Source: Candidatus Aenigmatarchaeota archaeon
GTDB lineage: Archaea > Aenigmatarchaeota > Aenigmatarchaeia > QMZP01 > JAFGSV01
Direction of reading: 5' to 3'
Length of the DNA: 64,000 nucleotides
Assembly (NCBI GenBank): GCA_016934325.1
Contig: JAFGSV010000033.1
Location: forward strand, 1,959 to 65,958
Position numbers and translations under genes: made by a program. Positions 11,046 through 43,768 of this stretch are shown here, in pieces. Position 1 is the first letter of the stretch, and each line of letters begins with the position of its first letter. Below the pieces are notes generated by a model, which saw only the letters and a list, made by a program, of their open reading frames with translations, made no database searches and was not told the origin of the DNA.

Positions 11046-12398
11046 ATGAAACTGTGGGAAAACGGCAACGGGGTCGGCGTTCATGAGAAGGTGGAGGAAT
11101 TCACCGCGGGCGAGGACATAAGGCTCGACCAGCAGCTGGTGGAGTGGGACGCCATCGGTTCCATGGCGCACGCGAGTATGCTGAACAAGATCGGCATAAT
11201 AACCCATTCGGAGCTCATGGACCTGAAGAAGGCCCTTGTCGATGTGGTGAACCTGCAAGAGAAGGGGAAATTCAGGATCGAGCTGAAGGACGAGGACGTC
11301 CACACGAAGATAGAGAACTACCTCACCGAGACCCTGGGGAACGTCGGGAAGAAGATACACACGGGGAGGAGCCGGAATGACCAGGTCATGGTGGACCTCA
11401 GGCTTTACACCAAGGAGAAGCTGCTCAAGATCGAGAAGAACCTCCTGACGCTGTGCAAGGAGATGGCAAGGTTCGCCGATTTGCACAAGGATGTGCCTAT
11501 GCCTGGCTATACGCATTTCCAGAAGGCGATGCCTTCATCCGTGGGCCTGTGGGCCATGGCTTACGTCGAATCTTTCCTGGATGACCTGAAGATGCTCAAG
11601 ACCGCCTACAGCATAAATGACCAGAACCCGCTCGGGTCTGCCGCAGGGTACGGGGTCCCGCTCGACCTGGACAGGGACTTGACTACGAAGCTGCTCGGAT
11701 TCGGCTCCTTGCAGAACAACGTGCTTTATGTCCAGAACAGCAGGGGCAAGATCGAGTCCATTGTGCTTTCGGCGCTGATGCAGATCATGCTTGACCTCGG
11801 GAAGCTCAGCAATGACGTGATACTCTACAGCACGGACGAGTTCGGTTTCTTCAAGATAGGCGAGAGGTTCAGGACAGGAAGCAGCATAATGCCGAAGAAG
11901 AGGAATCCGGACATACTGGAGCTTGTCAGGGGCAAGGTTAACATAATCACTTCGTCCCTCAACCAGGTGATCGGCACCATAAAGACCCTGCCGTCCGGAT
12001 ACCAGAGGGACCTGCAGGAGACCAAGGAGCCCCTCATTAAGAGCCTCGGGGTGACGAACAACTCCCTGGAGATGGTGGTCTTGGCGGTCAGGGACATATC
12101 CGTCAGCAGGGAAAGGCTCATCCAATCCTTCTCGTCGGGCATTTTCGCTACGGACGAGGCCTTCAAGCTCGTTTCCCAGGGCATTCCCTTCAGGGATGCT
12201 TACAAGCACGTCGACTACAATTTCCAGAAGTACAAGAAGGAGTCGCCGGAAGAGATAATCAAGAAGAGGAAGTACAAGGGGACCACAGGCGACCTTGGCA
12301 TCCTCAACATAAAGAAGAAGATCGACCGGGAGATGGCCGGCTCAAAGGCCCGGGAGAGGGAGTTCAAGAACGTCATAACGAAACTGATGAAGGCCTGA
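11046..12398 (+). CDS. argH: Argininosuccinate lyase
   Basis: [43 protein letters not shown] motifs. Confidence 0.96.
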
Positions 12399-30342: not shown

Positions 30343-30442
30343 GCCGGGGTGGCAGAATCTGGCCAATGCGCCCGCCTCGAATGAGGCTGAAGGGAAAGCG
30401 GGTGTCCTCACGGACGTGCAGGTTCAAATCCTGCCCCCGGCG
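30343..30442 (+). tRNA. tRNA-Ser(CGA) with ~15-nt intron at canonical position 37/38 (30382-30396)
   Basis: Acceptor GCCGGGG/CCCCGGC, discriminator G, anticodon stem CCCGC/GCGGG with loop CT-CGA-A|A, long variable arm GTCC-TCAC-GGAC, T-arm GCAGG-TTCAAAT-CCTGC. Confidence 0.9.
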
Positions 30443-30559
30443 CTGATATCTTTTTCTCATGAAAGTTAGACCAATGCGATTGGTGTATCGAAATATTGAA
30501 TCCCACCTTTCCCCCAGACTATGGAAGGTTATTTAAGTAAGCCTCTAAAAGAAAGAATC

Positions 30560-30820
30560 ATGTCCGCAGAAGCCTGCTGCGAGTTCGATGTGGTGCCGCC
30601 CCCGGGGATGTCGCCAGGAGACGTTGGATCTTATATTCGTAACGTGTTGCATGGGAATTTGGAAGGGCTGGAAAATAGTCCTGTTTCTGTAACATATATG
30701 GGGTCATTCCCCTTCAGAAAAGCCAGGATAAGGGTGACAGGAAGCGATAATCAGGATCATATCGGGCCGGCGATTATTTCCGGCTTGCAGGCAAGCTACT
30801 GGGACATAGACAGTAGATGA
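30560..30820 (+). CDS. Hypothetical protein (~86 aa)
   Basis: TATTTAAG ~25 nt upstream of ATG 30560; no recognised motif. Confidence 0.4.
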   Translation: MSAEACCEFDVVPPPGMSPGDVGSYIRNVLHGNLEGLENSPVSVTYMGSFPFRKARIRVTGSDNQDHIGPAIISGLQASYWDIDSR

Positions 30821-30870
30821 CCCGGTTTTGAGCGAATATCATATGTATATCGGGGGGAATGTCCAAGGCG

Positions 30871-31140
30871 TTACAGCAATCGCCTTTGTGGTGGCATGGG
30901 AAGGTTTCTGCAATCGCCACATATTGTCACTGCATATTCGATTTCATTCAATTCTTCCCCGTTCATGGTACTTTTTATCGCTTCAATGTCAATAATATTG
31001 GACCCGCTTATCCCGAGGACCTGTGCAATATATGTTCTCAACTGTGCATGATCGCTAAACGCAGGGATATCACCGCCACTCACAAATGCTACTGTGTTAT
31101 CTATTCCTATGCTTCCCATGCGACTTTGATAACCGCACAT
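30871..31140 (-). CDS. Possible hypothetical protein
   Basis: 89-aa ORF, plausible composition, no motif. Confidence 0.3.
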   Translation of the reverse strand: MCGYQSRMGSIGIDNTVAFVSGGDIPAFSDHAQLRTYIAQVLGISGSNIIDIEAIKSTMNGEELNEIEYAVTICGDCRNLPMPPQRRLL

Positions 31141-31293
31141 TTATTCACCACTTAGTAACTACATTATGATAATATTTTATAATCCCTCCTTAATAAAGAT
31201 TTGCATTGTCACAGTAGATGGAAATGACAGATTTGTCCAATAACGCCGTTATGAGCTTATGATGCTATTTAATTACGAAATTCAAAAGTACGT

Positions 31294-31923
31294 ATGTTCG
31301 TGACTCTCAATATCCGTGACTTGAAAAGCGGCAGGACCGGCAGATTCCCGTTGAAACCTCTTGAAAAGATTCTCCCGCTGGGAAAGACACCGGAGATAAT
31401 CGATGTTGATATAAAATACAGTCCTCCTTCGGGAAAGGTTCCAGGAGATATAATCAAAATTGATAAACCCGAAGTCTATTTTTACGGCACGCTGCTGATA
31501 AGGCTTTCATCAAAAGACAGAAGAGAGTTCATCAGAGAGATAGAGATAAGATTCGATAATAGTAAACACGACGGCACTGATATACACCTCAATTTGGATG
31601 AAATATACCGTCTGGGGAAGCACATAAAGGATAAATTGCCTCGAAGTGAAAAAATCGGCGAGTTTCATATGACTCCACTGGGTGATGATAAGACACCGAG
31701 AATGATAGATTTGACCGTGATTACTTCTTTTGGTAAGGGTACGCACATGAGAATTGGTTATTATCCCCACAAAGATGACATAATTATAGCCAAGGCTGTC
31801 AAAGACTTCATGGAAAAGGTAAAGCGAGGAACTTTAATCAAGCGTGATGAAAAACGAATGGAGGTTCTCAACAAGAAATATTACAAATCCTTCACGAGAC
31901 GTAAAGCGAATGAAGTGAAATAA
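31294..31923 (+). CDS. Hypothetical protein (209 aa)
   Basis: Long ORF in AT-rich DNA; no motif recognised. Confidence 0.6.
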   Translation: MFVTLNIRDLKSGRTGRFPLKPLEKILPLGKTPEIIDVDIKYSPPSGKVPGDIIKIDKPEVYFYGTLLIRLSSKDRREFIREIEIRFDNSKHDGTDIHLNLDEIYRLGKHIKDKLPRSEKIGEFHMTPLGDDKTPRMIDLTVITSFGKGTHMRIGYYPHKDDIIIAKAVKDFMEKVKRGTLIKRDEKRMEVLNKKYYKSFTRRKANEVK

Positions 31924-31953
31924 TGGTGGTAGAACTATCGTAAATCTGTAAAG

Positions 31954-32310
31954 TCAATGTTTACTCCAATAATCCCATACTCTCTTTATTTCATCGACCC
32001 AGAATCTATATCTTTGTCCCCATTTGTTGAAACACCCTAATTCAAACGCCAATTCAAAAAATCCATTGCCAGGCATTTTTGTGTCTTTTCTCACAACCAC
32101 AGCCGTAATTAGAAGACCTGTCTTTTTACGGTCTGCCCTGTTTATATCATCGAGAATTTTTCCTATTTCATGATATCTGTCATCTGGATTTTCATGCCCG
32201 AGACCCACAAGAGACATCAGTTCTTCATAATAGATTATACCCTTTATGTTATCAGATTTCCCTTTACGGGCAACTTCCTTTATTTTGTTGTAGATAACAT
32301 CATTTACCAT
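31954..32310 (-). CDS. Hypothetical small protein, putative nucleic-acid-binding domain
   Basis: YYEELMSLVG...EIGKILDDI...LITAVVVRK...PGNGFF pattern, HTH-like; family name not confidently recalled. Confidence 0.55.
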   Translation of the reverse strand: MVNDVIYNKIKEVARKGKSDNIKGIIYYEELMSLVGLGHENPDDRYHEIGKILDDINRADRKKTGLLITAVVVRKDTKMPGNGFFELAFELGCFNKWGQRYRFWVDEIKRVWDYWSKH

Positions 32311-32397
32311 TCATTTCATAGTTTTCGCAAAGACTAATAAAACCGACGTTTAAACGGTTTTGTAGAAATCATCAATAACAGCGTTACGAGACATTTA

Positions 32398-32811
32398 TTA
32401 CTTCTTCTTTGTCACTTTGTCAAATTCTTCGTCTACATTCCCCTCATATGCAACATCAGTAATTTTACTGATGTTAACGATTTGCTCTGCGAATATTAAA
32501 AATACACTCAACGCAACGAGTATTATGAGAAATATGTCCCCTAATGAAATCACTAAACCAGGGAAAACAACGTTGATTAACAAGTATGAATCAATTATTA
32601 TGCCTAGAACTAAAATACTCCCAATAAAAATTTGATAACGCATACCGCTTTTCAGTGCATTGTAATGTTGCTTATTTTTCTCAATGTGCTCAAAATTTTC
32701 AACTATTATCCTTCTAACGTTCTCCAAGGTCTGCAAATACTTGGTTGCAAGAAAAATAAGTATCGCCAATATGAAACTGTAGTATGTGGCGAGTACCTCT
32801 GCTCCAGCCAT
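32398..32811 (-). CDS. Hypothetical membrane protein (~3 TM)
   Basis: 137 aa, hydrophobic segments at the N-terminus and in the C-half. Confidence 0.55.
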   Translation of the reverse strand: MAGAEVLATYYSFILAILIFLATKYLQTLENVRRIIVENFEHIEKNKQHYNALKSGMRYQIFIGSILVLGIIIDSYLLINVVFPGLVISLGDIFLIILVALSVFLIFAEQIVNISKITDVAYEGNVDEEFDKVTKKK

Positions 32812-32885
32812 GATAAGTGAATGTTTTCTGGATTAAAAAGTTTCTCTATTAAAATTCGAACATGATATATCATTAGGATGACTTT

Positions 32886-33413
32886 ATGGAAAAAGTGAAG
32901 AAAGTGGGTTTGGATGATTTCATCGAAGAAAACCATAACCTTCTGACAGTTTTTGGGGTTTTTGCAGCATTGACAGCATTGTTCTCAAGAATAGGAGAAA
33001 GTGGAAATGATGTGATAACGATATCCATTTACATGGCATCAATGTCTTTTCTCATGCTGATTATGATAGCTTGGGTAATATGGACAAAATTTCCAAAAAG
33101 CGAGAAAGCAAGTGATACCATTAAGATATTCGAATTTCTTTACTTGGGTCTGCTTTTGTCAATGTCATTATTTGTTTTACTGACTTACAAAAATACAATC
33201 AAGTCATTTTCATTTCTTATCTTCTTTGCACTATATACCACTATAACTGTGAAACTTATTGGTCAAAGAGAGATTCCTAAGAAAGTCAGAAAACTGATGA
33301 AAAAACATAAGAAAATAAGAACATTTATTGCGGTTACGGTAGCTCTCATGTTCATACTGGTTGTATTCATATTAGCTCACTTCTCATCTCAGGCTTTCAA
33401 CCAATATTTTTAG
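32886..33413 (+). CDS. Hypothetical membrane protein (~5 TM)
   Basis: 175 aa with repeated hydrophobic stretches. Confidence 0.6.
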   Translation: MEKVKKVGLDDFIEENHNLLTVFGVFAALTALFSRIGESGNDVITISIYMASMSFLMLIMIAWVIWTKFPKSEKASDTIKIFEFLYLGLLLSMSLFVLLTYKNTIKSFSFLIFFALYTTITVKLIGQREIPKKVRKLMKKHKKIRTFIAVTVALMFILVVFILAHFSSQAFNQYF

Positions 33414-33486
33414 CCAGATATTCCGATAGTTTTATTATTCCTGTATCTAATTTATGAATAGTGGGCTACTGCCATAGCCCAGAAAG

Positions 33487-33870
33487 ATGTCGGTGATTGA
33501 TATAGACGGAATAGAATATAAATATATGTCTGTATATCAGGAGGAATTGAAGCACAAAGAATATTTAACGATCCTTCAGGCTGCAATAACGGTCATCATG
33601 ACATTTTTGGTGTTGTTAGCTATGGCGGTAATAACGAGTCCAGAAAGAATTGACGTAGGAACGATTTCACTGATAGGATTAGTCTCCGTAATGGGAATGA
33701 TAATAACGGTTCTACTAATACACTTTCTCGGTTTAAAACCCCTCCAAGAAAAAATACCGAAGAGGAAAGGTCAAGCATGGTCTATAATTCTCATTATTAT
33801 CATATTCCTAATACTTATTTTTCTGCTCGTTACATATGGTTCTTTGCCAGCATCAAGAACAACGCCTTGA
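33487..33870 (+). CDS. Hypothetical membrane protein (~3 TM)
   Basis: 127 aa with three hydrophobic stretches. Confidence 0.55.
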   Translation: MSVIDIDGIEYKYMSVYQEELKHKEYLTILQAAITVIMTFLVLLAMAVITSPERIDVGTISLIGLVSVMGMIITVLLIHFLGLKPLQEKIPKRKGQAWSIILIIIIFLILIFLLVTYGSLPASRTTP

Positions 33871-33971
33871 TTGCTTATAAATAAGTTATAAGGGGGATAT
33901 ATGATAAAATAAGGGTAAAGTATTTAAATATATAAGTTAAAAATATCCTATACATAATAAAAGGTACCCTT

Positions 33972-34943
33972 ATGGAATTAAAAATAAAAGTGACATCAAA
34001 AAATGTAAATGTCGTTGCCAGGTTCCTAAAAGAACTGGCATATGCAGACACATCAATTACACCTGTTCCTTCAGAAGAATCAGAAATTGAGGAAACAGCT
34101 AATTACATGACTAAAAATGATTTCAATTTAAAGGATTCTCTTCTTAAAAAACCTGAAAAACCTGAAATTACTTTATCGGGCGATATAGTTAAAAATGAAA
34201 CCACAACAGAAGTTGGAAATTGGGGTCTTTTTAATAGCTTTTTTCCCATAAAGGCGGTTCTTAGAGTTTTGATAAATAGAGAAAATGAGAATGAGAAATC
34301 TTTGACTTTAAGAGAATTGGTTGAAATATGCAGAATCGAATTTTCAAAAGGCAACCTTAGAAAACTGAGAGGTTTGCCCAGTAATTTAAGTAAAGAGAGT
34401 TCTATTGGTAGGCTTGTTTGGCATTTCATTGGACCAGCTCGGGAAATGGGATTCATTGTTATTGAAGGTGAAGTCAAGGGAGAAAAAGTTGATTATATTC
34501 CAATTTCGGATAAGGATTGGAATAAGGTTAGATTATTCCCAACGAAGGATGGTGCAAAATTTGCATTACTGGAAAATAACGTTTTTGATAAAGGTAGTAG
34601 CGATCAGGTTCTTACTATTGAAGAGAGGAAATGGTTAATGGATTATCTGAAAAAAATAGAAAAGAGGGGTCATAAAGAATTCACTATATTGAAAAAAGTT
34701 TTCGAATTCCTTTCTTCTGGACATGATGGTAAAGAGGATTTGAGGAGTTGGTTTAGAAATAACTCGGCTTTTTTAAATTATATTAAGAAGTCATCTTCCA
34801 AAAGCGGAGAAGCCCTGAATAATCAGCTAGATAATTTGTCAATTACATTCGCTGCAAGTAAATTGGCTTTGCTTAGAGAATTTGGTCTTGTTAGTAATAA
34901 AAGAGGTGACTATTCAATAATTGGTGATTTGAATGAGCTTTAA
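33972..34943 (+). CDS. Hypothetical protein (323 aa), possible tandem winged-helix DNA-binding protein
   Basis: AT-rich promoter upstream; LTLRELVEI, AREMGFI and C-terminal LLREFGLV..KRGDYSI resemble wHTH elements; overlaps next gene by 11 nt. Confidence 0.6.
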   Translation: MELKIKVTSKNVNVVARFLKELAYADTSITPVPSEESEIEETANYMTKNDFNLKDSLLKKPEKPEITLSGDIVKNETTTEVGNWGLFNSFFPIKAVLRVLINRENENEKSLTLRELVEICRIEFSKGNLRKLRGLPSNLSKESSIGRLVWHFIGPAREMGFIVIEGEVKGEKVDYIPISDKDWNKVRLFPTKDGAKFALLENNVFDKGSSDQVLTIEERKWLMDYLKKIEKRGHKEFTILKKVFEFLSSGHDGKEDLRSWFRNNSAFLNYIKKSSSKSGEALNNQLDNLSITFAASKLALLREFGLVSNKRGDYSIIGDLNEL

Positions 34944-37254
34944 AGATGACGAAGTTGATATAGAGAGAGGAGAAATAAAATTTCATACATTTGGAACTCT
35001 CAAATCACTAACTCAGTGGGTTAATACACATGAAGATGGATTTCCAGAATGGATTAAAAATGTTAGATCTGCATATTGCAGATTAAATCTTCCAGAAAAA
35101 CATAGAGCTGCTGTAATTCTTATCAAGGATAAAGACAATTTAGGTCCAGCAAGATTAGGCATTTTAGATGTTGGGGGAGCTACTGAAGAAGATGTAAATT
35201 ATTGGTCTGTTTGGCAAGATCCCGATGCTTCTTCGAGAGGGGGACAAAAAAAGGAAGAAACACAAGGCAATGGTGGGAAAGCGTATATGTACAAGCTTTT
35301 CAACGGTCCTTCGTACTTTATGGGTGTAAATAATAACATTGTAAATCGGATAGGATTTATCGGTGAACATGCTTCACTTGATAGAGGAAATCCTGGTTAT
35401 ATTCCAAGTGAAAAGGAAGCGAAAAATTTCAAAATATCTGATTGGGAAGATTTATTGATTTTTGAATTACAGAAATTTGGAACAAACATAGCGGAATTAC
35501 CCACTGAAGTGAAAGATATTATTTTTGATAGAAAATCTTATACTATCGTCAATGGAAGCGAACCAAGAGATTGGAACCAAAAAGATATTAAATTTTTTCT
35601 GAAAAAAATATCCAGACAATCACAATCAGTTCTTGCTCTGAATCAAGTGAGATTTTATGTTTTACATAATGGAAGGCTTTTGAATGAGGGTAAACCCTTA
35701 AAACTTGAAGAAATTGAACCGCACCCTAAATTTAAAGATCCAATCATCTATGAAATACCAAAAATTGTACTAAAAAAGGATGGAAATCAGGTTAATACGA
35801 CCAAATCATCATCTGGGATACATAAACTTGGGCGTATCATTCTATACACATCGAAAGAAAATATGTCAGCATCCTATGTAACTTTGAAACCCAGATGGGT
35901 GGTTACTTATAAAACCCAATATGAAGTTGTTGGGCAAAAAACAATTCCTGAAATTATTTCTGCACCTGGTATTCATTTTATTTATGCTGTTGTTGAACTC
36001 GACGCTTTGAGTCCAGATTATGTAAATTTAGGTAGAAAGAGACCAAATCCAGGATCTCTTATTGATGCTGTAGACCAATTTCTATCTGAAAAGATACGTG
36101 ACTTGGCAAAAGAAATAAATGAATTGAATAAAGAGGAGCTTAGTAAACTATTCTTAGATGAAATCCAAAAAGAAAATAAATATCTCAATGAAATAAAAAA
36201 TCGTTTTTTGCCTAAAGGTGGACTACTTGAAGTGGTAGATACAGAGGGTGATGGTGAAGGTTCGAAAAATAAGAAAAAGGTGAAACCAATAAAATGGGGC
36301 AAAGATGTACATAAAATTGAAACTCAATCATATGCTCTAAAAATTGGTGTTTCAGTACCTGTTAATCTAAAGGTATTATTGAAACCAAGTGCAAAGGATT
36401 TGCACGATAACCCAATCCCATCACCAAACTGGGAATGGAAATCTGATAATAAAAATATAATTGAAATTGACAATGATGGTAATTGCATACCAAAATCCAA
36501 AGGTTCTTGTAGAATTTGGGTATCGATACCAAAAACAAGTGCAATATCAGCACCAATAGAAGTGGAAGTTTGGAAAATCAAAGAGATAATTTTATCGCCA
36601 AGAAATTTAGAAATTAGTACTGGTTCTATCAAAATGATTACAGCCCAAGTTACAAATGATGAAGGAGAGAAATCTGCTGATGTAATATTAAAATGGAAAC
36701 ATGATGCAGAAAATGAGCGAATTGTAAAAATTAGTCCTAGAGGGTACGTATTTGGAAATTCTGTAGGAAAAACGAACGTTTTTGCTGAATCAGAAGTTTC
36801 ATGTACAAATCCTTGTGAAGTAGAAATCGTAAAGGGGGAGAATAAAGAAGGCAAAGGGAGTGGAGTCCCTCAACTACTGCTTACTGAAAAGGACATAGAT
36901 CCATTTACAGGTGAAATAAGACCCAGTGACCCAGAAGCAGCTGCACTATGGCAAGAACCTTGGGATGTTCAAAATAACATATGGTGGTTGAATTTGCAGA
37001 GCAAAGATGCATCGTTTGCTTATAGGAATATAAAAGAAAATCCGCATTTATGGAGATTGTTTCATGCAAAAATTCTTGTCGATATGATGATTCAGGTACA
37101 TATGCAAGAAGAGTATAATAAAAAAATTCAGGAAAAGGCTTACTGGTCTGACCATAAATATTTTTATGATAGAAAATATGTTGAGCTGTGTCAAGTTATG
37201 TGGGAAAAATTAAGTCAATACGTTCAGTTCGGAATGGAGGAAGGAAATGACTGA
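34933..37254 (+). CDS. GHKL (Hsp90/MORC-like) ATPase with two C-terminal Ig-like (Big_2-type) repeats
   Basis: Bergerat-fold motifs EWIKNVRSAY (N-box), ILDVGG (G1), QGNGGK (G2); two repeats WEWKSDNKNIIEIDNDG..IPKSKGSCRIWV and LKWKHD..RIVKISPRG.VFGNSVGKTNVFA. No signal peptide. Confidence 0.65.
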   Translation: MSFKDDEVDIERGEIKFHTFGTLKSLTQWVNTHEDGFPEWIKNVRSAYCRLNLPEKHRAAVILIKDKDNLGPARLGILDVGGATEEDVNYWSVWQDPDASSRGGQKKEETQGNGGKAYMYKLFNGPSYFMGVNNNIVNRIGFIGEHASLDRGNPGYIPSEKEAKNFKISDWEDLLIFELQKFGTNIAELPTEVKDIIFDRKSYTIVNGSEPRDWNQKDIKFFLKKISRQSQSVLALNQVRFYVLHNGRLLNEGKPLKLEEIEPHPKFKDPIIYEIPKIVLKKDGNQVNTTKSSSGIHKLGRIILYTSKENMSASYVTLKPRWVVTYKTQYEVVGQKTIPEIISAPGIHFIYAVVELDALSPDYVNLGRKRPNPGSLIDAVDQFLSEKIRDLAKEINELNKEELSKLFLDEIQKENKYLNEIKNRFLPKGGLLEVVDTEGDGEGSKNKKKVKPIKWGKDVHKIETQSYALKIGVSVPVNLKVLLKPSAKDLHDNPIPSPNWEWKSDNKNIIEIDNDGNCIPKSKGSCRIWVSIPKTSAISAPIEVEVWKIKEIILSPRNLEISTGSIKMITAQVTNDEGEKSADVILKWKHDAENERIVKISPRGYVFGNSVGKTNVFAESEVSCTNPCEVEIVKGENKEGKGSGVPQLLLTEKDIDPFTGEIRPSDPEAAALWQEPWDVQNNIWWLNLQSKDASFAYRNIKENPHLWRLFHAKILVDMMIQVHMQEEYNKKIQEKAYWSDHKYFYDRKYVELCQVMWEKLSQYVQFGMEEGND

Positions 37255-37981
37255 TAAACAACAGTTAACTTTGAATGAAAAAGTACTATTAGCTGCATTT
37301 GCATTACAAAAAGGTGATATTAAAAATAAATTTACAGCTGAAGACCTTCTCGTTGAAGTGTGGCAGCAAGATAAAGGTGCATTTGGTTTGAGAAATTATG
37401 AGAACAAATATCCAGATTCAAATAAATTATTCACAAAATTAGATGGGAAAGGTGGACTGGTTAGGAAAGGTTTATTGAAAAAAGTTTCAGAAAGAACATA
37501 TATATTAACTCCAGCTGGAATGTCTCTATCAAATTCAATAAGACCTGTTGACGAAATAACTACAACAAAGGTTAATAGAGAGCTTTATGAAGAGATTAAA
37601 AAAATCATTAATCATCCAATTTTCTCTGAATGGCTAAAAGATTCAAATAAGCCCGAAAAATTCAGAGATGCCGGTTGGTTTTGGGGTATTGCACCAGGAA
37701 ATCCCCCAAGTATTGTAGCAGAAAGGTTAGCGAATATAGAACAAAATTTGATTGAGGCTAAGAAAAAAACTGCTGAATGCGGAGGGAAGCTTGTATTAGA
37801 TACTAGGGGTATGGATCAAAATGTTAAACTTGCTCTTACAACAAAGGGTAACGCAAATATCGACAGTGATAAATCGAAGATTTATCTGGATTCCAAGGAC
37901 ATAAATAAATGTATAGAATTTCACGAATTGCTAAAAAAACGGTTTGAAAAAGAGTTAAGTATTATGCTGAAGAAAAAATGA
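37247..37981 (+). CDS. Hypothetical protein with N-terminal winged-helix domain (244 aa)
   Basis: FTAEDLLVEVW...GLVRKGLLKKVSERTYILTPAG wHTH wing pattern; overlaps upstream gene by 8 nt; stop abuts MTase stop. Confidence 0.6.
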   Translation: MTDKQQLTLNEKVLLAAFALQKGDIKNKFTAEDLLVEVWQQDKGAFGLRNYENKYPDSNKLFTKLDGKGGLVRKGLLKKVSERTYILTPAGMSLSNSIRPVDEITTTKVNRELYEEIKKIINHPIFSEWLKDSNKPEKFRDAGWFWGIAPGNPPSIVAERLANIEQNLIEAKKKTAECGGKLVLDTRGMDQNVKLALTTKGNANIDSDKSKIYLDSKDINKCIEFHELLKKRFEKELSIMLKKK

Positions 37982-39112
37982 TTATTTCTTTAGAACAAGT
38001 ATTCTGTCAACTTTTGTGGCATTCCCCCTTTTTTCTCCCCATATTCTTGATACTTTCGGGTTTCCATTATTTTCATCGTAAATAACATCATTGATTATGT
38101 CTTCAACTTTAGAAAATCCTATTTCTTTAGCACATCTCTCCCATACGCTTTCCGCTAAATTGATGGTGTCTGTGGATTCTTTCTTTTTTACATCTCCTAT
38201 TACAAGTACAGCTTTCCCTTCGGGTTTTAGTACCCTTTCAAATTCTCGAAGAACATCATTCATGAAGTTACAATATTTATCAATAGATTGGGTCACGAAT
38301 AGTTTTTTATCCACTTCTACACCATCTTTTCCAAGAAACCATAACCTAATCCAGTTGAATGTTCCATAAGTAATTAAACGAGTATATGGAGGTGAAGTTA
38401 CAATTAAATCAACAGAGGAATCCTTTATACGACTCATATTCCTTGCATCCTGCATGTATATCTTTCCTTTATTACTACATTTTTGGTAGCATCTTTCTAG
38501 TTTTTCATTCAGGATTCTGAAAACATCCCTTTTCGGTTTTCTGAGATGATGCTCTTTTATGTAATTCTTCACGTAATTGGGTGACATCGAAAATGTGTTG
38601 GGCATTTGAATAGAAAGATAACCCTTTGAGCCACCGTGCATTATTCCGAGAACCATTGCCGTGATAAAGATGTCTACATTACTTTTCTTCCATTTCAATT
38701 CCTTTTTGAGATACACGAGCTGGTTTAATGTATACTCACCAAAAATCATTTTGATTTTCTTATCAACATGCTTTGTGTCTATCTCTTCTTTTTTGTAATT
38801 TTCCTTTAAGCTTTTAATCCTACTTATTATTCTCCCTTTCTGAGGCACAGAAGCCTTCGATCTCGAAAGTACTGCTGCTAATATATTTCTATCATTTCCT
38901 ATCGCTTTTCTTTCAAGAAGACAACCTTCCAGAACCGTAGTTCCCCTGCCAGAAAATGGATCTAATACTAAATCACCCTTTTTCGAATATTTATCAATGA
39001 AGTAATTCGGAATTGATGGTGGATACATTGCCATATAACTACATATGGAATGTAATTTGTTTCCCATATTTTTCGGATATATCTTCCATTCAGGACAATT
39101 TATTTCTCCCAT
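37982..39112 (-). CDS. Amino-DNA methyltransferase (likely N4-cytosine; motif I before motif IV, alpha-type order)
   Basis: VLDPFSGRGTT (motif I) near N-terminus, DLIVTSPPY (motif IV) later; LHSICSYMAMYPP N-terminal block; GGAGTAGT SD-like upstream. Confidence 0.88.
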   Translation of the reverse strand: MGEINCPEWKIYPKNMGNKLHSICSYMAMYPPSIPNYFIDKYSKKGDLVLDPFSGRGTTVLEGCLLERKAIGNDRNILAAVLSRSKASVPQKGRIISRIKSLKENYKKEEIDTKHVDKKIKMIFGEYTLNQLVYLKKELKWKKSNVDIFITAMVLGIMHGGSKGYLSIQMPNTFSMSPNYVKNYIKEHHLRKPKRDVFRILNEKLERCYQKCSNKGKIYMQDARNMSRIKDSSVDLIVTSPPYTRLITYGTFNWIRLWFLGKDGVEVDKKLFVTQSIDKYCNFMNDVLREFERVLKPEGKAVLVIGDVKKKESTDTINLAESVWERCAKEIGFSKVEDIINDVIYDENNGNPKVSRIWGEKRGNATKVDRILVLKK

Positions 39113-39125
39113 ACTACTCCCTATT

Positions 39126-39335
39126 TCAAAAAGTATAATCGATTCTTATTTTCCAATACTTTTTGTTCCCGATTTTTTTTGTCACCACATATTTTCTTTT
39201 ATGCAATTGCTCCAAGTTTTTGTTTGTAGTTGCCCAGGACGTACCAGTTTTTTTTGTCATCTGAGTTGTTGTAAGTGGTCGTGAAGCATTGTATAAAATA
39301 TTCAATATTTTTCTTTCAATATCCGTGAAAGGCAA
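39126..39335 (-). CDS. Small winged-HTH transcriptional regulator (controller-like)
   Basis: IERKILNIL...LTTTQMTKKTGTSWATTNKNLEQL.KRKYV; TTG start 5 nt after upstream stop. Confidence 0.7.
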   Translation of the reverse strand: MPFTDIERKILNILYNASRPLTTTQMTKKTGTSWATTNKNLEQLHKRKYVVTKKIGNKKYWKIRIDYTF

Positions 39336-39340
39336 CCTAC

Positions 39341-39631
39341 TTATCGATTTTCTTGAAGATATTCTATTTTTAATGTTTTTTCACCCCTTTCATTCGGCAA
39401 AATCTTTAAAGTAAATTTTACTTTATCGTCCTTTGTAATTTTCATTGTTTCAGATATTTCTTTAGGAAATCTTATCAGATATTGACTACCATCATAAACT
39501 ACTTTCCTCGTTTTTTCTATGATTTCTGGTTCTGGTTCAATAATTTTTTTAATTTGTTCGGGAATTGTAGAGTAATCTGTATTGAAAAATTCTTTATCAT
39601 CCTGACTGACTTTATTTTTTTTCTTTACCAT
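39341..39631 (-). CDS. AbrB/MazE-like DNA-binding protein
   Basis: RKVVYDGSQYLIRFPKEISETMKITKDDKVKF swapped-hairpin pattern. Confidence 0.7.
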   Translation of the reverse strand: MVKKKNKVSQDDKEFFNTDYSTIPEQIKKIIEPEPEIIEKTRKVVYDGSQYLIRFPKEISETMKITKDDKVKFTLKILPNERGEKTLKIEYLQENR

Positions 39632-39644
39632 AATTAATATATGA

Positions 39645-39761
39645 TTCGTACTATTTATATAAATTTCGTACTATTTTTACTAAATTTTACGATTGGTGAG
39701 TGATAAACGTACGAAAAACGATAACTTTATAAATATGTACACCAAATAATAATCGTACGAA
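39645..39761. repeat. Four TTCGTAC motifs (two direct, two inverted) and five GTAC cores upstream of the AbrB-wHTH-MTase operon
   Basis: TTCGTACTATTT at 39645-39656 and 39665-39676; GTACGAA at 39709-39715 and 39755-39761; extra GTAC at 39737-39740. Confidence 0.75.
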
Positions 39762-39780
39762 TATTATTCATAATATTTTC

Positions 39781-39815
39781 CAAAGGGGGAGAAAGTTAGA
39801 GCCTTTCCCCCTTTG
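39781..39815. other. Hairpin CAAAGGGGG...CCCCCTTTG immediately upstream of the transposase
   Basis: 9-bp perfect outer stem plus inner AAAG/CTTT pairing. Confidence 0.55.
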
Positions 39816-39829
39816 GGTGGAGTATCCGT

Positions 39830-41410
39830 ATGCAGGAAGACACCACAATTAAGGAATTGAAGGATGAGATTAATAAGCTTTTCAGTCAGATGGGAGAATA
39901 CCCACTCGACCTTGCGGTATTCCTTTCACGGTTGAGACTTGAGCCAATCCGTGGGCTAATCGATAATAGGTACAGTGTTAGTGAAAAGGATGGACGCATG
40001 AAGCATAATCCCATGTCCATAATAAAGGCACTTATGCTGAAGGATTTGCGTGGCATAAAGCATTATTCCCAGCTTCTGAATCGTCTGTCAAGGCATCCTG
40101 AAGAGGCGGAAATTCTGGGATTCAATACGAAGATGACTAGGCAGTCAATGAGCGTTTTCACCTTGGGAAAGCTCACTCAGGAAATCGAAGACCTCATCGT
40201 GGTTGCAGTGGATCATATAAGAGATAAGGCGAAAGAGACTGGAAAGCTTCTGGATGTCTATTTCTTGGATGAAAGCGGTACATACAAAGGAAAGTCTACT
40301 CGGACCATCGAAAGAAGGAAGAGCGAAAAGTCGGGCGAGGTTGTCAGAGTGCTGAAAAGAGAGATATTCCCGAATCTCGACTTTCCCCTCAAGTCGAAAG
40401 CCAAGTATGATAAAATGCACTTTCTTGATCTGCTGGCTTATGTCGCATACGAGAACGTGTGTGCAAATCAAGGCTCGAAGCTGATGAAGGAAGACGCCAA
40501 TTTCAACGGCAGAGTTCCCCATTCCAGGACGCTTATGGGCTACTTGAAACTTCTTGACAAGCGTGAGATAGAGCTAATGTTCATCAATTCTTTCGAAAAA
40601 GTGTTCAAGATAGCTAAGATGCAGGGATTCTTCAACAGGGAAGTCGACGTGGCGATAGACTTCACGGACTGGCTGTACTACGGCGACAAGAACGATCTCG
40701 GAGTCATGGAAGGTCAGACCAAGCAGGGAACGTCCCACAGGTTCAGGTTCGCCACCATCAAGATAGTCGAAAAAAACAACGATTTCGTCCTGATGGCATT
40801 ACCCGTGTTCAAGTTCAGCGATAGAAGGGAAGTAGCGAAAAGACTCATAAATTACGCCAATTCGAAGGTGAACGTGAGGTACTTCTACGTCGACAGGGAG
40901 TTCTTCTCCTCCACCTTCATAAGCCTCTTCGAAGAACTCGGAATAAAGTACATAATGCCAGCCATCAAGAACGAGAAGGTGGTGAAGCTTATCGAGAACC
41001 GCAAGTCGGATTTCATAGCCTACACGTTCACTGGAACGGCGAGGAAGTATGACGCCAAGATGACGCTCGTCGTGAGGAAGGATGAGGAGGGAAAGGACGT
41101 CTGTTTCGCTACGAACGTCCCCATCCTGAGATTAGTATGGTCGAACCTTTTCGAGCTTTACGGAAAGAGATGGGGCATAGAGACCGCATACAGGGTCGCA
41201 AAGCACGAGTTCCGACCCAACACTACGTCCAAGAACCACAAGATAAGGCTCTATTATTTCCTGTTCTCATCGCTGCTTTACAACATCTGGGTAATCGTGA
41301 ACTCCATAGTCAGCGTCTACCTGTTCAGGGAAGTCGTGGATTACAGGGTCATAACGGCGAAGCTGTTCATGAAGAAGTTCTACCAAGCTTATACGGAAAC
41401 CATCACTTAG
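39830..41410 (+). mobile_element. DDE transposase, IS4 superfamily / ISH3-like, with N-terminal extension
   Basis: VDVAIDFTD (D1), FYVDREFFS (D2), YGKRWGIETAYR (YREK/E) intact; 526 aa. No terminal inverted repeats identified. Confidence 0.85.
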
Positions 41411-41591
41411 CCTCTTCCAGAAGCTTTCTGAAAAACTTCTCTATCGAAGAGCCCCCCGGGCAGAATGTGTGACCTTTGCTACTTGTTACGTGGATTGTCC
41501 CGTCCTTGTGCTCGAAAACCCTGATGCCCTTGACGTAAATCGCCTTCCCTTTGCTCTCCACTACCTCCGTGTAGAACGGCTTGTCGACCAT
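41403..41591 (-). CDS. Small hypothetical protein (62 aa)
   Basis: Plausible codon usage; 3' end overlaps transposase stop by 8 nt. Confidence 0.4.
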   Translation of the reverse strand: MVDKPFYTEVVESKGKAIYVKGIRVFEHKDGTIHVTSSKGHTFCPGGSSIEKFFRKLLEEAK

Positions 41592-41754
41592 AATCAGGCT
41601 TGGTTTCCGGCTTTAATAATCAAATCGTTGGACAATTCCAACTACTGTGTCAATGGGCACGGGCGATCAGGGAGAAGGCTGGATTACAAGGGTAGGTATT
41701 TGGATATTCCCGGGCGTTCGAGAATAAAAAATTTACTTCCCTAGTATCAATACC

Positions 41755-42423
41755 ATGATTGATTACTGGATCCGGGAAGGGGATGAGAAATTGCTGGGGT
41801 ACGCCTTAAATGCCGATGCTCGCCCCTGCCACCCGGGGTACCTTACCGGGGACATCCAGAACGATTGCACCGGCTGGCTATCGAATGTGAATGACTATTT
41901 CATTCTCGCCCGGTGGAAGCTTTGGAAGCCTGGTAGGGACTCGGAGCAGGAATACGATTTCGCCCATGTCAAGAAGGCGGCCCTCTACCCCCAGGGCGTC
42001 GTCTTCACGCCGTTCACGGCCAACGAGATCCAACTTGACTATAAGAGCAGGTTGGTGCACAGGAAGGAGCGGATCGAGCTTGTCGGAAGCGACAGCGATG
42101 GCTTCGTACAGAGATTCTTCCCGACGCAAGAGCAGTTGTTCAGCAAGCAGGAAACCAGGGACCATCACCCCTTTCTGTACCGAAGCGCCGATGAATTCAT
42201 AGTGGAGGTTCCCGGATCATTCCCGATCTCGGCGCTCGACAGCTTGCTGAGGGCTGAGGGCGTGCTGATGGACGAGTGCGTCAGGGGATCGAAGTACAAG
42301 GGGATAATCAGCATGTGCAGCAGAACCGTGGTCTTCACCGGCTGGCCCCATCATACGGAAGAGTCCATGAAGAACATGCCGGAATTCATCGCAGCTTTCG
42401 CCGATAAAAACAGCATCTTCTGA
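41755..42423 (+). CDS. Hypothetical protein (222 aa)
   Basis: Long ORF with host-like codon bias; no motif recognised. Confidence 0.55.
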   Translation: MIDYWIREGDEKLLGYALNADARPCHPGYLTGDIQNDCTGWLSNVNDYFILARWKLWKPGRDSEQEYDFAHVKKAALYPQGVVFTPFTANEIQLDYKSRLVHRKERIELVGSDSDGFVQRFFPTQEQLFSKQETRDHHPFLYRSADEFIVEVPGSFPISALDSLLRAEGVLMDECVRGSKYKGIISMCSRTVVFTGWPHHTEESMKNMPEFIAAFADKNSIF

Positions 42424-42444
42424 AGCCGCGGCTGGGCCAAATGG

Positions 42445-42493
42445 TTAAACAAGAGAAAAAGACAAAAAATAAAGGAATGGGGGTTTTGTCCCC
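42445..42493 (-). terminator. Probable terminator of tuf
   Basis: On the minus strand GGGG-ACAAAA-CCCC followed by a long T-rich run, directly after the tuf stop. Confidence 0.55.
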
Positions 42494-42496
42494 TTA

Positions 42497-43768
42497 TTAC
42501 TTCGCCTTGACAAGGTCCGTGCAGATACCTGCTGCCACCGTCTTGCCCATGTCCCTGATAGCGAACTTCGCTAGCTCGGGGAAGTCTGACTGCTTCTCGA
42601 TAGCCACGGGCTGAAGAGGCTGCACCCTGATGACGGCTGCGTCACCGGTCTTTAGCGTGTCCGGGTGCTCGGCGACCACAGCTCCGGTCTTCGGGTCAAG
42701 CTTCTTCAGGATCTCCACGACCTTCCCAGCTATGTGCGCTGTGTGTATGTGGAAGACCGGGGTGTATCCCTTGGTGATCACTGTAGGGTGCTGCAGCACG
42801 ATTATCTGTGCCGTGAACTCCTTCGCCACCGTGGGCGGGTTGCTCGGCGAACCGATGACGTCGCCCTTCTTGATGTCCTTCTTGCTTATTCCCTTGACGT
42901 TGAAGCCTATGTTGTCGCCAGGCTCTGCCTTGTCGAGCTGCTTGTGGTGCATCTCGATGGACTTGATCTCGGCTGTGGTCCCTGATGGCTCGATGACAAT
43001 CTTGTCGTTCGGCCTGAGCACACCGGTCTCCACCCTTCCGACAGGGACGGTCCCGACACCAGTTATGGTGTAGACGTCCTGCACAGGAAGCCTGAGAGGC
43101 TTGTTGACAGGCTTCTCAGGAACTGTTATGGTGGAGTCCATGGTCTGCAGCAGGGTCGCCCCCTTGTACCAGGGCATGTTGGTGGACTTCTTGACGACGT
43201 TGTCTCCGATGTAAGCTGACAACGGGATGAAAGGTATCTTATCCGTCTTGTATCCTATCGACTGCAGAAGCTTGGCTATGGAATCCTTGACCTCGTTGTA
43301 CTTCTTCTCTTCGTAGTTGACCTCGTCCATCTTGTTGACGGCGACGATCACCTGGTTTATGCCCAGGACCTTGGACAGGTACAGGTGCTCCTTGGTCTGC
43401 TCCTGGATGCCGTCCTTGGCCGAAACCACCAGTATCGCTGCGTCTGCCTGGCTGGCACCCGTGATCATGTTCTTCACGAAGTCCCTGTGGCCCGGGCAGT
43501 CTATCGCTGTGAAGTAGAACTTGTCGGTGATTATAGGCTTGTACATCAGGTCGATAGTGACGCCTCTCTCCCTCTCCTCCTTCAGCTTATCCATCACGAA
43601 GGCGAACTCGAACGTCTCCTTCTTCACTTCCTTGGCGATTTCCTTAAGCTTTCGCATCTCCTGCTCTGAAAGTGAACCCGAATCGTATAAGAGTCGGCCT
43701 AGCAATGTTGATTTCCCGTGGTCTACATGACCGGCAGTTATTATATTCACATGCGGCTTTTCTGCCAT
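42497..43768 (-). CDS. tuf: Translation elongation factor aEF-1alpha
   Basis: [64 protein letters not shown]. Confidence 0.98.

Follow-up and report, generated by a model that had tools for sequence, protein, structure and literature searches.

We analyzed a 64,000-nt stretch of contig JAFGSV010000033.1 from Candidatus Aenigmatarchaeota archaeon (assembly GCA_016934325.1), hereafter the window, in which six genes at positions 33972 to 39631 form two compact operons that converge stop to stop. On the plus strand lie gene A (33972-34943, 323 aa), gene B (34933-37254, 773 aa), and gene C (37247-37981, 244 aa), with overlaps of 11 nt between A and B and 8 nt between B and C. The minus strand carries a gene for a predicted N4-cytosine-type amino-DNA methyltransferase (MTase; 37982-39112, 376 aa), then, across a gap of 13 nt, a 69-aa winged helix-turn-helix (wHTH) gene (39126-39335) and, after a further 5 nt, a 96-aa open reading frame (ORF; 39341-39631). 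The stop codons of the MTase and gene C abut with zero gap. A first-pass annotation, made from the letters of the window, had described these operons as a candidate undescribed defense module; its coordinates for the junction at 37981/37982, the overlaps, and the gaps are exact. Its observations are confirmed by the analysis presented here, and its interpretation is partly supported.

The cassette formed by A, B, C, and the convergent MTase sits on an island that was acquired horizontally by a small genome (the assembly comprises 1.24 Mb and is 79% complete), whose gene content, with topoisomerase I and EF-1alpha, is that of an archaeon. The fraction of G+C is 0.32 to 0.39 across 31 to 40 kb of the window and 0.55 to 0.60 in the flanks, or 33% in the island against about 57%. 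A probably intron-bearing tRNA gene of 100 nt on the plus strand (30343-30442; Rfam RF00005, 47.2 bits, E = 5.8e-07) bounds the island on its left, at a distance of 3.5 kb upstream of A, which agrees with the earlier description of the genes as AT rich and preceded by a tRNA. ARAGORN reported no tRNA in the window, a result overridden by the Rfam match, and the orthologous tRNA in a genome of the same genus matches in two pieces, which suggests a differing intron. From the end of the tRNA at 30442 to the start of the EF-1alpha gene at 42497, about 12 kb of variable DNA (30443-42496) has been inserted, containing several unknown and membrane ORFs, an ISH3-type transposase, and, in a low-GC core at 31.1 to 39.8 kb, the cassette. 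In five genomes of the same family, topA, the tRNA, and EF-1alpha are found together in one 3.1-kb locus, with the tRNA directly between the other two; the distance from EF-1alpha to topA is just some 320 bp in L136. Relatives have nothing at the tRNA site where the island has been inserted; no direct repeat of att type, matching the 3' end of the tRNA, was found. Since B is present in only 1 of 41 genomes of the order (the window's own, with 40 relatives lacking it), the topA-tRNA-EF-1alpha site is empty elsewhere, the G+C content of the island is low, and integrases flank the same cassette in L048, the cassette is mobile. A housekeeping role for these genes, a possibility that the first-pass annotation had raised, is contradicted by the absence of B from relatives and the insertion at a tRNA site.

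Because its motifs are conserved and its modeled fold finds matching structures, B is identified as a GHKL ATPase with an S5 domain (GHL class) and intact ATP-binding motifs. Residues 1 to 430 (34933-36222) are predicted to comprise a GHKL (Bergerat) ATPase and an S5-type transducer, followed by a coiled-coil helix pair. We recovered 114 full-length homologues of about 780 aa from archaea and many bacteria, at 37 to 71% identity, nearly all labeled hypothetical and one labeled "Ig-like domain-containing protein." The N-box, E39xxxN43, is invariant among 34 aligned homologues, as are D79, G81, and G82 of the G1 box (LDVGG, a DxGG variant) and Q111GNGGK116 of the G2 box, or ATP lid, in the homologue alignment; K336, conserved in at least 90% of aligned homologues, is a candidate for the transducer lysine. 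An AlphaFold2 model of B (predicted local distance difference test [pLDDT] score, 82) aligned with Hsp90, MORC3, and SMCHD1 over 430 to 460 columns in Foldseek (E of about 1e-7), and sequence identity to the MORC2, MORC3, and SMCHD1 structural matches was 10 to 14%. No GHKL match to B was found in Pfam or NCBIfam at E ≤ 0.1, B falls outside the HATPase_c_3 and MORC-type profiles, and searches of Pfam, NCBIfam, PHROGs, and PADLOC returned nothing beyond a weak match to Big_2. Residues ~460 to 635 (36311-36837) are predicted to form two Big_2 Ig-like domains, given a Foldseek match to LigA (E = 8.5e-12); the Pfam Big_2 match is weak in the B protein of the window (E = 0.05) and significant in a homologue (2.6e-08). 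Both the 773-aa GHKL ATPase and the Ig domains read in the first pass are upheld by these comparisons.

The remainder of B, residues 640 to 773 (36850-37254), is a family-specific C-terminal domain and a candidate effector or dimerization domain. Its invariant residues (G644, P646, D656, P657, Q674, D678, W684, W685, N687, W707, R708, H711, and W738) hold even in relatives at 24 to 27% identity, and its profile had no match among PDB sequences. A MutL-like DQHAxxE reading of the "FHAxxxxEM" helix is unsupported, with only H711 invariant in distant members. We also considered whether B could be a histidine-kinase-like sensor or an Hsp90-type chaperone with C as its regulator. Hsp90 chains are indeed among the best folds of B and C is a winged-helix protein; however, the order of a GHKL N terminus followed by an S5 transducer is that of the GHL class, with no DHp domain or phospho-acceptor, B had no HATPase_c, HisKA, or HSP90 match in Pfam, and its absence from all 40 relatives does not suit a housekeeping protein. 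This explanation was already disfavored, and we regard it as extremely improbable. Histidine-kinase, chaperone, and topoisomerase-VI-like readings were set aside on the basis of the GHL-class fold, the absence of B from relatives, and the lack of a Toprim motif in C.

Several copies of B are broken. In L029 (8001-11822), a segment of about 1.4 kb with a 410-aa ORF splits B, whose C-terminal part resumes at 11079; this break is probably an insertion sequence (IS) that inactivates the ATPase. B is likewise truncated beside a 410-aa ORF in L041. In L017, L021, L024, L031, and L033, all metagenome-assembled genomes (MAGs) and some of them assembled as multimegabase contigs, B is spread over two or three frames, which may be sequencing frameshifts or real pseudogenes.

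Gene C (37247-37981, plus strand) encodes, judging from its AlphaFold2 model (pLDDT, 89), a tandem winged-helix protein, in which a helical linker joins an N-terminal winged helix to a second, small unit that is winged-helix-like; the wHTH assignment made for this 244-aa protein in the first pass is matched by these winged helices. The best Foldseek matches of the model were five chains of the kleisin MukF (E of 1.7e-3 to 6e-2; template modeling [TM] score of about 0.3), followed by generic winged helices. No match to C was found in Pfam, NCBIfam, PADLOC, PHROGs, or PDB sequences. A possible PD-(D/E)xK motif in C (P56-D57 ... D67xK69) was rejected, as its second half is not conserved.

We examined gene neighborhoods in 38 genome loci and 80 metagenome loci, collected with B and C, respectively, as the seed, and around individual homologues. 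C lies directly downstream of B wherever a genome locus has room, and B lies directly upstream of C wherever there is room in the metagenome loci, with the exception of L124, which has no B match. Because each gene adjoins the other in this way, the invariant unit of the family is the B-C pair, and C is an obligate partner of B. The pair was found in archaea, in bacteria of six phyla or more, and on a single conjugative plasmid. A profile of C searched against 1.84 billion representatives (clusters at 50% identity) retrieved 1738 clusters with E ≤ 1e-3 as the threshold and 863 with E ≤ 1e-10. Genes up to 2.6 kb from B-C pairs encode, among others, recombinases of the serine and tyrosine types, PIN toxins, HamB (Hachiman) helicases, HmaC, and a Dcm-type methylase, and the conflict-gene context of the cassettes also includes PIN/MazE and HEPN toxin-antitoxin pairs. 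Two neighbor genes match the Hachiman helicase HamB at E = 3.7e-204 in a PADLOC tally that does not name their loci; ~700-aa genes directly downstream of B-C in two Solirubrobacterales genomes (L010, 11011-13128, and L025, 6570-8666) are tentatively assigned as these HamB candidates.

Such surroundings bear on whether B-C is selfish or counter-defense cargo, that is, whether it aids the establishment or maintenance of an element through addiction, exclusion, or antirestriction, with the SPP[YF] MTase as the element's protective orphan methylase. A distant B-C pair, annotated as hypothetical, is carried by a conjugative plasmid of Ensifer adhaerens (pCTYH.Ch1_3, NZ_CP118613.1, 59460-62548), where a methylase gene and genes for repair or regulation are nearby, integrases and recombinases adjoin B-C pairs, and the cassette of the window lies on an inserted island with an IS, all of which would be expected of cargo. 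On the other hand, bona fide defense genes are among the neighbors, no B-C pair was found in phage records, and acidobacterial loci (e.g., L003, L028, and L033) share common chromosomal neighbors without mobility genes. On balance, we consider a cargo role unlikely.

In contrast to the B-C pair, which is conserved, the plus-strand triad envisaged by the first-pass annotation is not a fixed unit, and its first gene is exchangeable. The position before B-C is occupied by A in archaeal loci and elsewhere by c2 (an unnamed ~200-aa family), by c3 (a ~170-aa coiled-coil family with a subthreshold match to HARE-HTH), by a DUF262-like protein, by PIN/MazE pairs, or by nothing. Homology between A and either c2 or c3 was not significant in hhalign (E of 0.05 to 0.24). 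The ~420-aa first-gene protein of L093 and L114, which ends 12 to 35 nt before B, carries an "IDG(I/L)QRTH" motif, and on this motif only it may resemble the DUF262/ParB-like domain of GmrSD type IV enzymes. A itself (33972-34943, plus strand), an accessory first gene presumed to encode a DNA-binding adaptor, belongs to a family of 17 clusters; it had no match in Pfam, NCBIfam, PADLOC, PHROGs, or the PDB, and these searches supported none of the wHTH-like segments read in it in the first pass.

Wherever the context of an A homologue could be read, the gene opens a cassette that also encodes an MTase and a MORC-like or GHKL ATPase, and so A is a connector specific to methylase-linked cassettes with ATPases of these kinds. 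Two of these cassettes are cousins of the one in the window. In L047, A is followed by a C-like 217-aa protein (hidden Markov model E = 7e-10), an 854-aa HATPase_c_3 protein, a convergent DPPF methylase, and a BglII-like endonuclease; in L046, it is followed by a putative 619-aa GHKL protein (from motif reading only), a 189-aa protein, an SPPY methylase, and an HNH endonuclease. Both cousin cassettes thus adjoin a nuclease gene. By hhalign, homology was not significant between B and the GHKL proteins of L046 and L047 or between C and the 189-aa protein of L046. A SACS/Tiamat-like giant gene (1387 aa, PF25794) is found 2 kb from the A-headed cassette of L046 (7530-8241 and 315-5348), which places two different GHL-type systems side by side. 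Beside the A-headed cassette of L047 (1300-6689) are a faint NurA match, a DUF87 ATPase that is possibly HerA-like, and a terminase large subunit, a region that could be a provirus or a second defense pair.

The MTase (37982-39112, minus strand) matches PF01555 at 80 bits (cutoff, 26.7) and PADLOC MTase_II at 6e-44. Motif I (DPFSGRG, residue 51) comes before motif IV (SPPY, residue 240), the two being about 190 residues apart, and PDB relatives include N4-cytosine MTases and M.PvuII; the earlier reading of an SPPY amino-MTase is borne out by the family match and the motif. An orthologous MTase follows C in the same convergent, stop-adjacent position in L001, L007, L048, and L050 to L054. A second MTase type is linked in L032, L042, L083, L090, L091, and L104, a third is found in L056 and also on the Ensifer plasmid, 4 kb from B-C, and L041 has an MTase of the window's type divergent from its c2 gene. 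All MTases linked to B-C carry SPP[YF].

We then compared MTase linkage with the phylogeny of C (107 rows, with linkage judged for 66 loci). The clade that contains the window (support, 96) has A and the convergent MTase in 9 of 9 members, among which B identity falls as low as 49%; the co-occurrence of the plus-strand genes with the MTase, on which the first-pass proposal depended, is thus seen in other genomes. An MTase is linked in 16 of the 66 judged loci of the family, and these fall in four lineages, all outside one bacterial crown clade of 87 rows, within which lie 46 of the 50 MTase-less loci in the sample. Mapped on the C tree, the MTase label changes 4 times, compared with a mean of 14.5 after shuffling, and none of 500 shuffles gave a value as low. 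The methylase is thus an integral part of the system in the window's clade, whereas the bacterial crown clade either lost it or never acquired it. These patterns also address whether the cassette is two independent units, an orphan or regulatory methylase operon (with the wHTH and 96-aa genes) and an unrelated A-B-C operon that merely share an island. Consistent with independence, an MTase is missing from most B-C pairs, conservation does not extend to the wHTH and 96-aa genes, and the two operons are convergent and hence not cotranscribed. However, the stop-to-stop order with an orthologous MTase has been kept clade-wide despite the divergence in B, and other B-C lineages have acquired two further MTase types, always with SPP[YF]. 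We therefore judge independence of the two operons to be very unlikely.

Unlike the MTase, the two other genes of the minus-strand operon are local to the island, and the first-pass view of this operon as part of the module holds for the MTase and fails for its neighbors. The 69-aa winged-helix regulator (39126-39335; TTG start) matches HTH_24 (E = 2.7e-06) and an Lrs14-like family (E = 8.8e-05), and neither it nor the 96-aa ORF (39341-39631) has a homologue in any related locus; the ORF found in the same position in L007 is, on inspection, unrelated to the 69-aa protein. The 96-aa ORF had no match in Pfam, NCBIfam, or PADLOC and lies outside the AbrB/MazE profiles, its PDB matches are spurious (leucine-rich repeats), and BLASTP gave a MazE-like protein at E = 0.023 over 21 residues, so that its former "AbrB-like" label finds no support in family, PDB, or BLASTP comparison. 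Upstream of the minus-strand operon (39645-39761), four copies of TTCGTAC, two direct and two inverted, sit within 117 bp, accounting for 4 of the 8 copies in the 64-kb window; the direct copies are 20 bp apart, and each copy contains GTAC. This array is probably an operator.

The island has further features. An ISH3-family transposase gene (39830-41410, plus strand) lies on the right side, with a match to NCBIfam transpos_ISH3 (E = 1.5e-42) that is below that model's curated cutoff and a match to DDE_Tnp_1 above the Pfam cutoff. Directly before it, at 39781-39817, is a near-perfect GC-rich hairpin (CCAAAGGGGG ... CCCCCTTTGG), which could be a terminator or a terminal structure of an IS. The low-GC DNA at 31294-33870 holds 209-aa and 118-aa ORFs without a family match and three ORFs (137, 175, and 127 aa) resembling small membrane proteins, none of which is kept beside the cassette in other genomes.

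We propose that A-B-C and the convergent MTase constitute a mobile, restriction-like self/non-self module of the paraMORC kind, a reading that we give an even chance of being correct. The MTase would mark the host's own DNA with N4-methylcytosine (m4C). C, aided by A in the window's clade, would bind DNA and recruit B, which would dimerize on ATP binding, like MORC, Hsp90, and MutL, and close around DNA that lacks the mark. The C-terminal domain of B, with D656, Q674, D678, N687, R708, and H711, would serve as the effector and, by analogy, would most likely be an unrecognized nuclease. Expression of the methylase would probably be regulated by the local wHTH gene, the 96-aa gene, and the TTCGTAC array, in the window's island only. 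A cryptic nuclease is favored because GHL ATPases of conflict systems usually have C-terminal nucleases and because the A-linked cousin cassettes adjoin nuclease genes. MutL, for example, has a C-terminal nuclease. The same is reported of paraMORC3 (PMC2292703) and Tiamat (bioRxiv 10.64898/2026.09.30.754977). The self-marking role given to the MTase in the first pass would apply to those clades with a linked MTase and is not a family-wide feature; restriction itself is inferred.

Several observations weigh against this proposal. No nuclease or other effector domain was found in A, B, or C with Pfam, PADLOC, NCBIfam, PHROGs, and PDB sequences or in the fold of C, as the first-pass annotation had noted when it failed to see a nuclease motif in the plus-strand genes, and PADLOC gave no match for the cassette. 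The invariant residues of the C-terminal domain of B include five tryptophans, and these positions may belong to an interface instead of an active site. The N4-cytosine type of the MTase is suggestive only, with m4C specificity read from the motif alone, and the similarity of C to MukF, which comes from a model, is weak. Finally, the bacterial crown clade contains 46 loci without an MTase, none with one, and 41 that could not be judged; because it has no MTase-bearing member, the B-C core can evidently function with no methylase linked to it.

The main rival, and the more novel explanation, is nuclease-free clamping or silencing. Here, B-C (with A) would act as a MORC-type ATP-gated clamp that entraps or compacts unmarked DNA and so blocks replication or transcription, and the C-terminal domain of B would be only a dimerization or partner interface. 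The library searches of A, B, and C that found no nuclease signature are in its favor, as are the tryptophan-rich nature of that domain, the clamp or compaction ATPases MORC3 and SMCHD1 as the closest folds of B, and the kleisin MukF as the best folds of C. In contrast, the nuclease genes adjoining the A-headed cousins suggest cleavage as the usual output, C-terminal nucleases are typical of GHL ATPases in conflict systems, and the invariant D, D, N, R, and H residues of B resemble an active site. We consider the clamp to be unlikely. In its fullest form, the family would be a prokaryotic nuclease-free MORC-type immune or silencing system, in which C and the first-gene protein, as winged-helix readers, sense DNA lacking m4C and load an Ig-spaced GHKL clamp that entraps or compacts foreign DNA, a tentative idea with perhaps one chance in a handful of being true.

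Among described systems, the nearest kind to the proposed restriction-like module is that of the MORC and paraMORC1 to paraMORC5 GHKL-S5 ATPases, which are reported in restriction-modification operons (Iyer, Abhiman & Aravind 2008, PMC2292703). The two share the GHKL-S5 engine, a sporadic and laterally mobile spread in bacteria and archaea, and linkage to DNA methylases, and B resembles paraMORC1, -3, -4, and -5 in having a family-specific C-terminal extension. However, B has no HATPase_c_3 or other GHKL match in Pfam, and the cassette lacks an SF2 helicase and an RE-fold, HNH, or Vsr nuclease, nucleases being found only in the cousins L046 (HNH) and L047 (BglII-like). The window cassette further has a pair of Big_2 Ig domains, C as an obligate partner with tandem winged helices, and a first gene that is exchangeable, and its family is linked to MTases of the SPP[YF] amino type, whereas PMC2292703 describes cytosine methylases for the most part and adenine methylases rarely. 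A term search of that paper turned up no Ig domains, winged-helix partner, exchangeable first gene, or SPP[YF] MTases.

More distant comparisons place the family between several known machines. Residues 1 to 430 of B have MORC2, MORC3, and SMCHD1 among their best structural matches, with a coiled coil after the ATPase and plausible ATP-driven dimerization, but B lacks CW, chromo-like, and hinge domains and is encoded on a prokaryotic island with a methylase. Tiamat, which consists of a GHL ATPase, DUF3684, and a PD-(D/E)xK DNase (bioRxiv 10.64898/2026.09.30.754977), is likewise a GHL ATPase of prokaryotic defense with methyltransferase neighbors and swappable effector domains; it is a single giant protein rather than a system of two to four genes, and B has no PADLOC match and, in Pfam, no DUF3684 or PD-(D/E)xK. 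Type II restriction-modification systems with a controller protein share the PF01555 amino-methylase, the small HTH gene upstream, and the mobile island, but no restriction endonuclease family is represented in the six genes, and the conserved partners of the methylase are A, B, and C. With MukBEF and Wadjet, the cassette shares the concept of an ATPase clamp and winged-helix partner acting on foreign DNA, and C bears a weak likeness to the kleisin MukF; the cassette differs in having a GHKL ATPase in place of an SMC ATPase and in having no Toprim nuclease (JetD), and the MukF match is marginal (E = 1.7e-3; TM score, 0.3). A full-text literature search found no description of the A-B-C/MTase architecture, and no named system was matched in PADLOC or NCBIfam, in line with its earlier description as undescribed. 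Altogether, the family is large and unnamed in Pfam, NCBIfam, and PADLOC and, from its sequences and their distribution, is a credible candidate for a new defense system.

To our knowledge, almost none of the GHKL and MORC ATPases predicted to act in restriction-modification has been tested. That prediction was made in 2008 (PMC2292703), and Tiamat has only recently been shown to be a DNase (bioRxiv 10.64898/2026.09.30.754977). If B-C defends its host, it would do so either with a new nuclease fold or by a clamp-type disabling of foreign DNA without cutting. The consistent pairing with SPP[YF] MTases would make this a rare system keyed to N4-methylcytosine. Given a cultured host, through the Ensifer adhaerens plasmid, and compact cassettes of two to four genes, the family is directly testable. 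Should the clamp prove to be true, it would link prokaryotic immunity to eukaryotic silencing by MORC and SMCHD1 and provide that silencing with a bacterial and archaeal counterpart.

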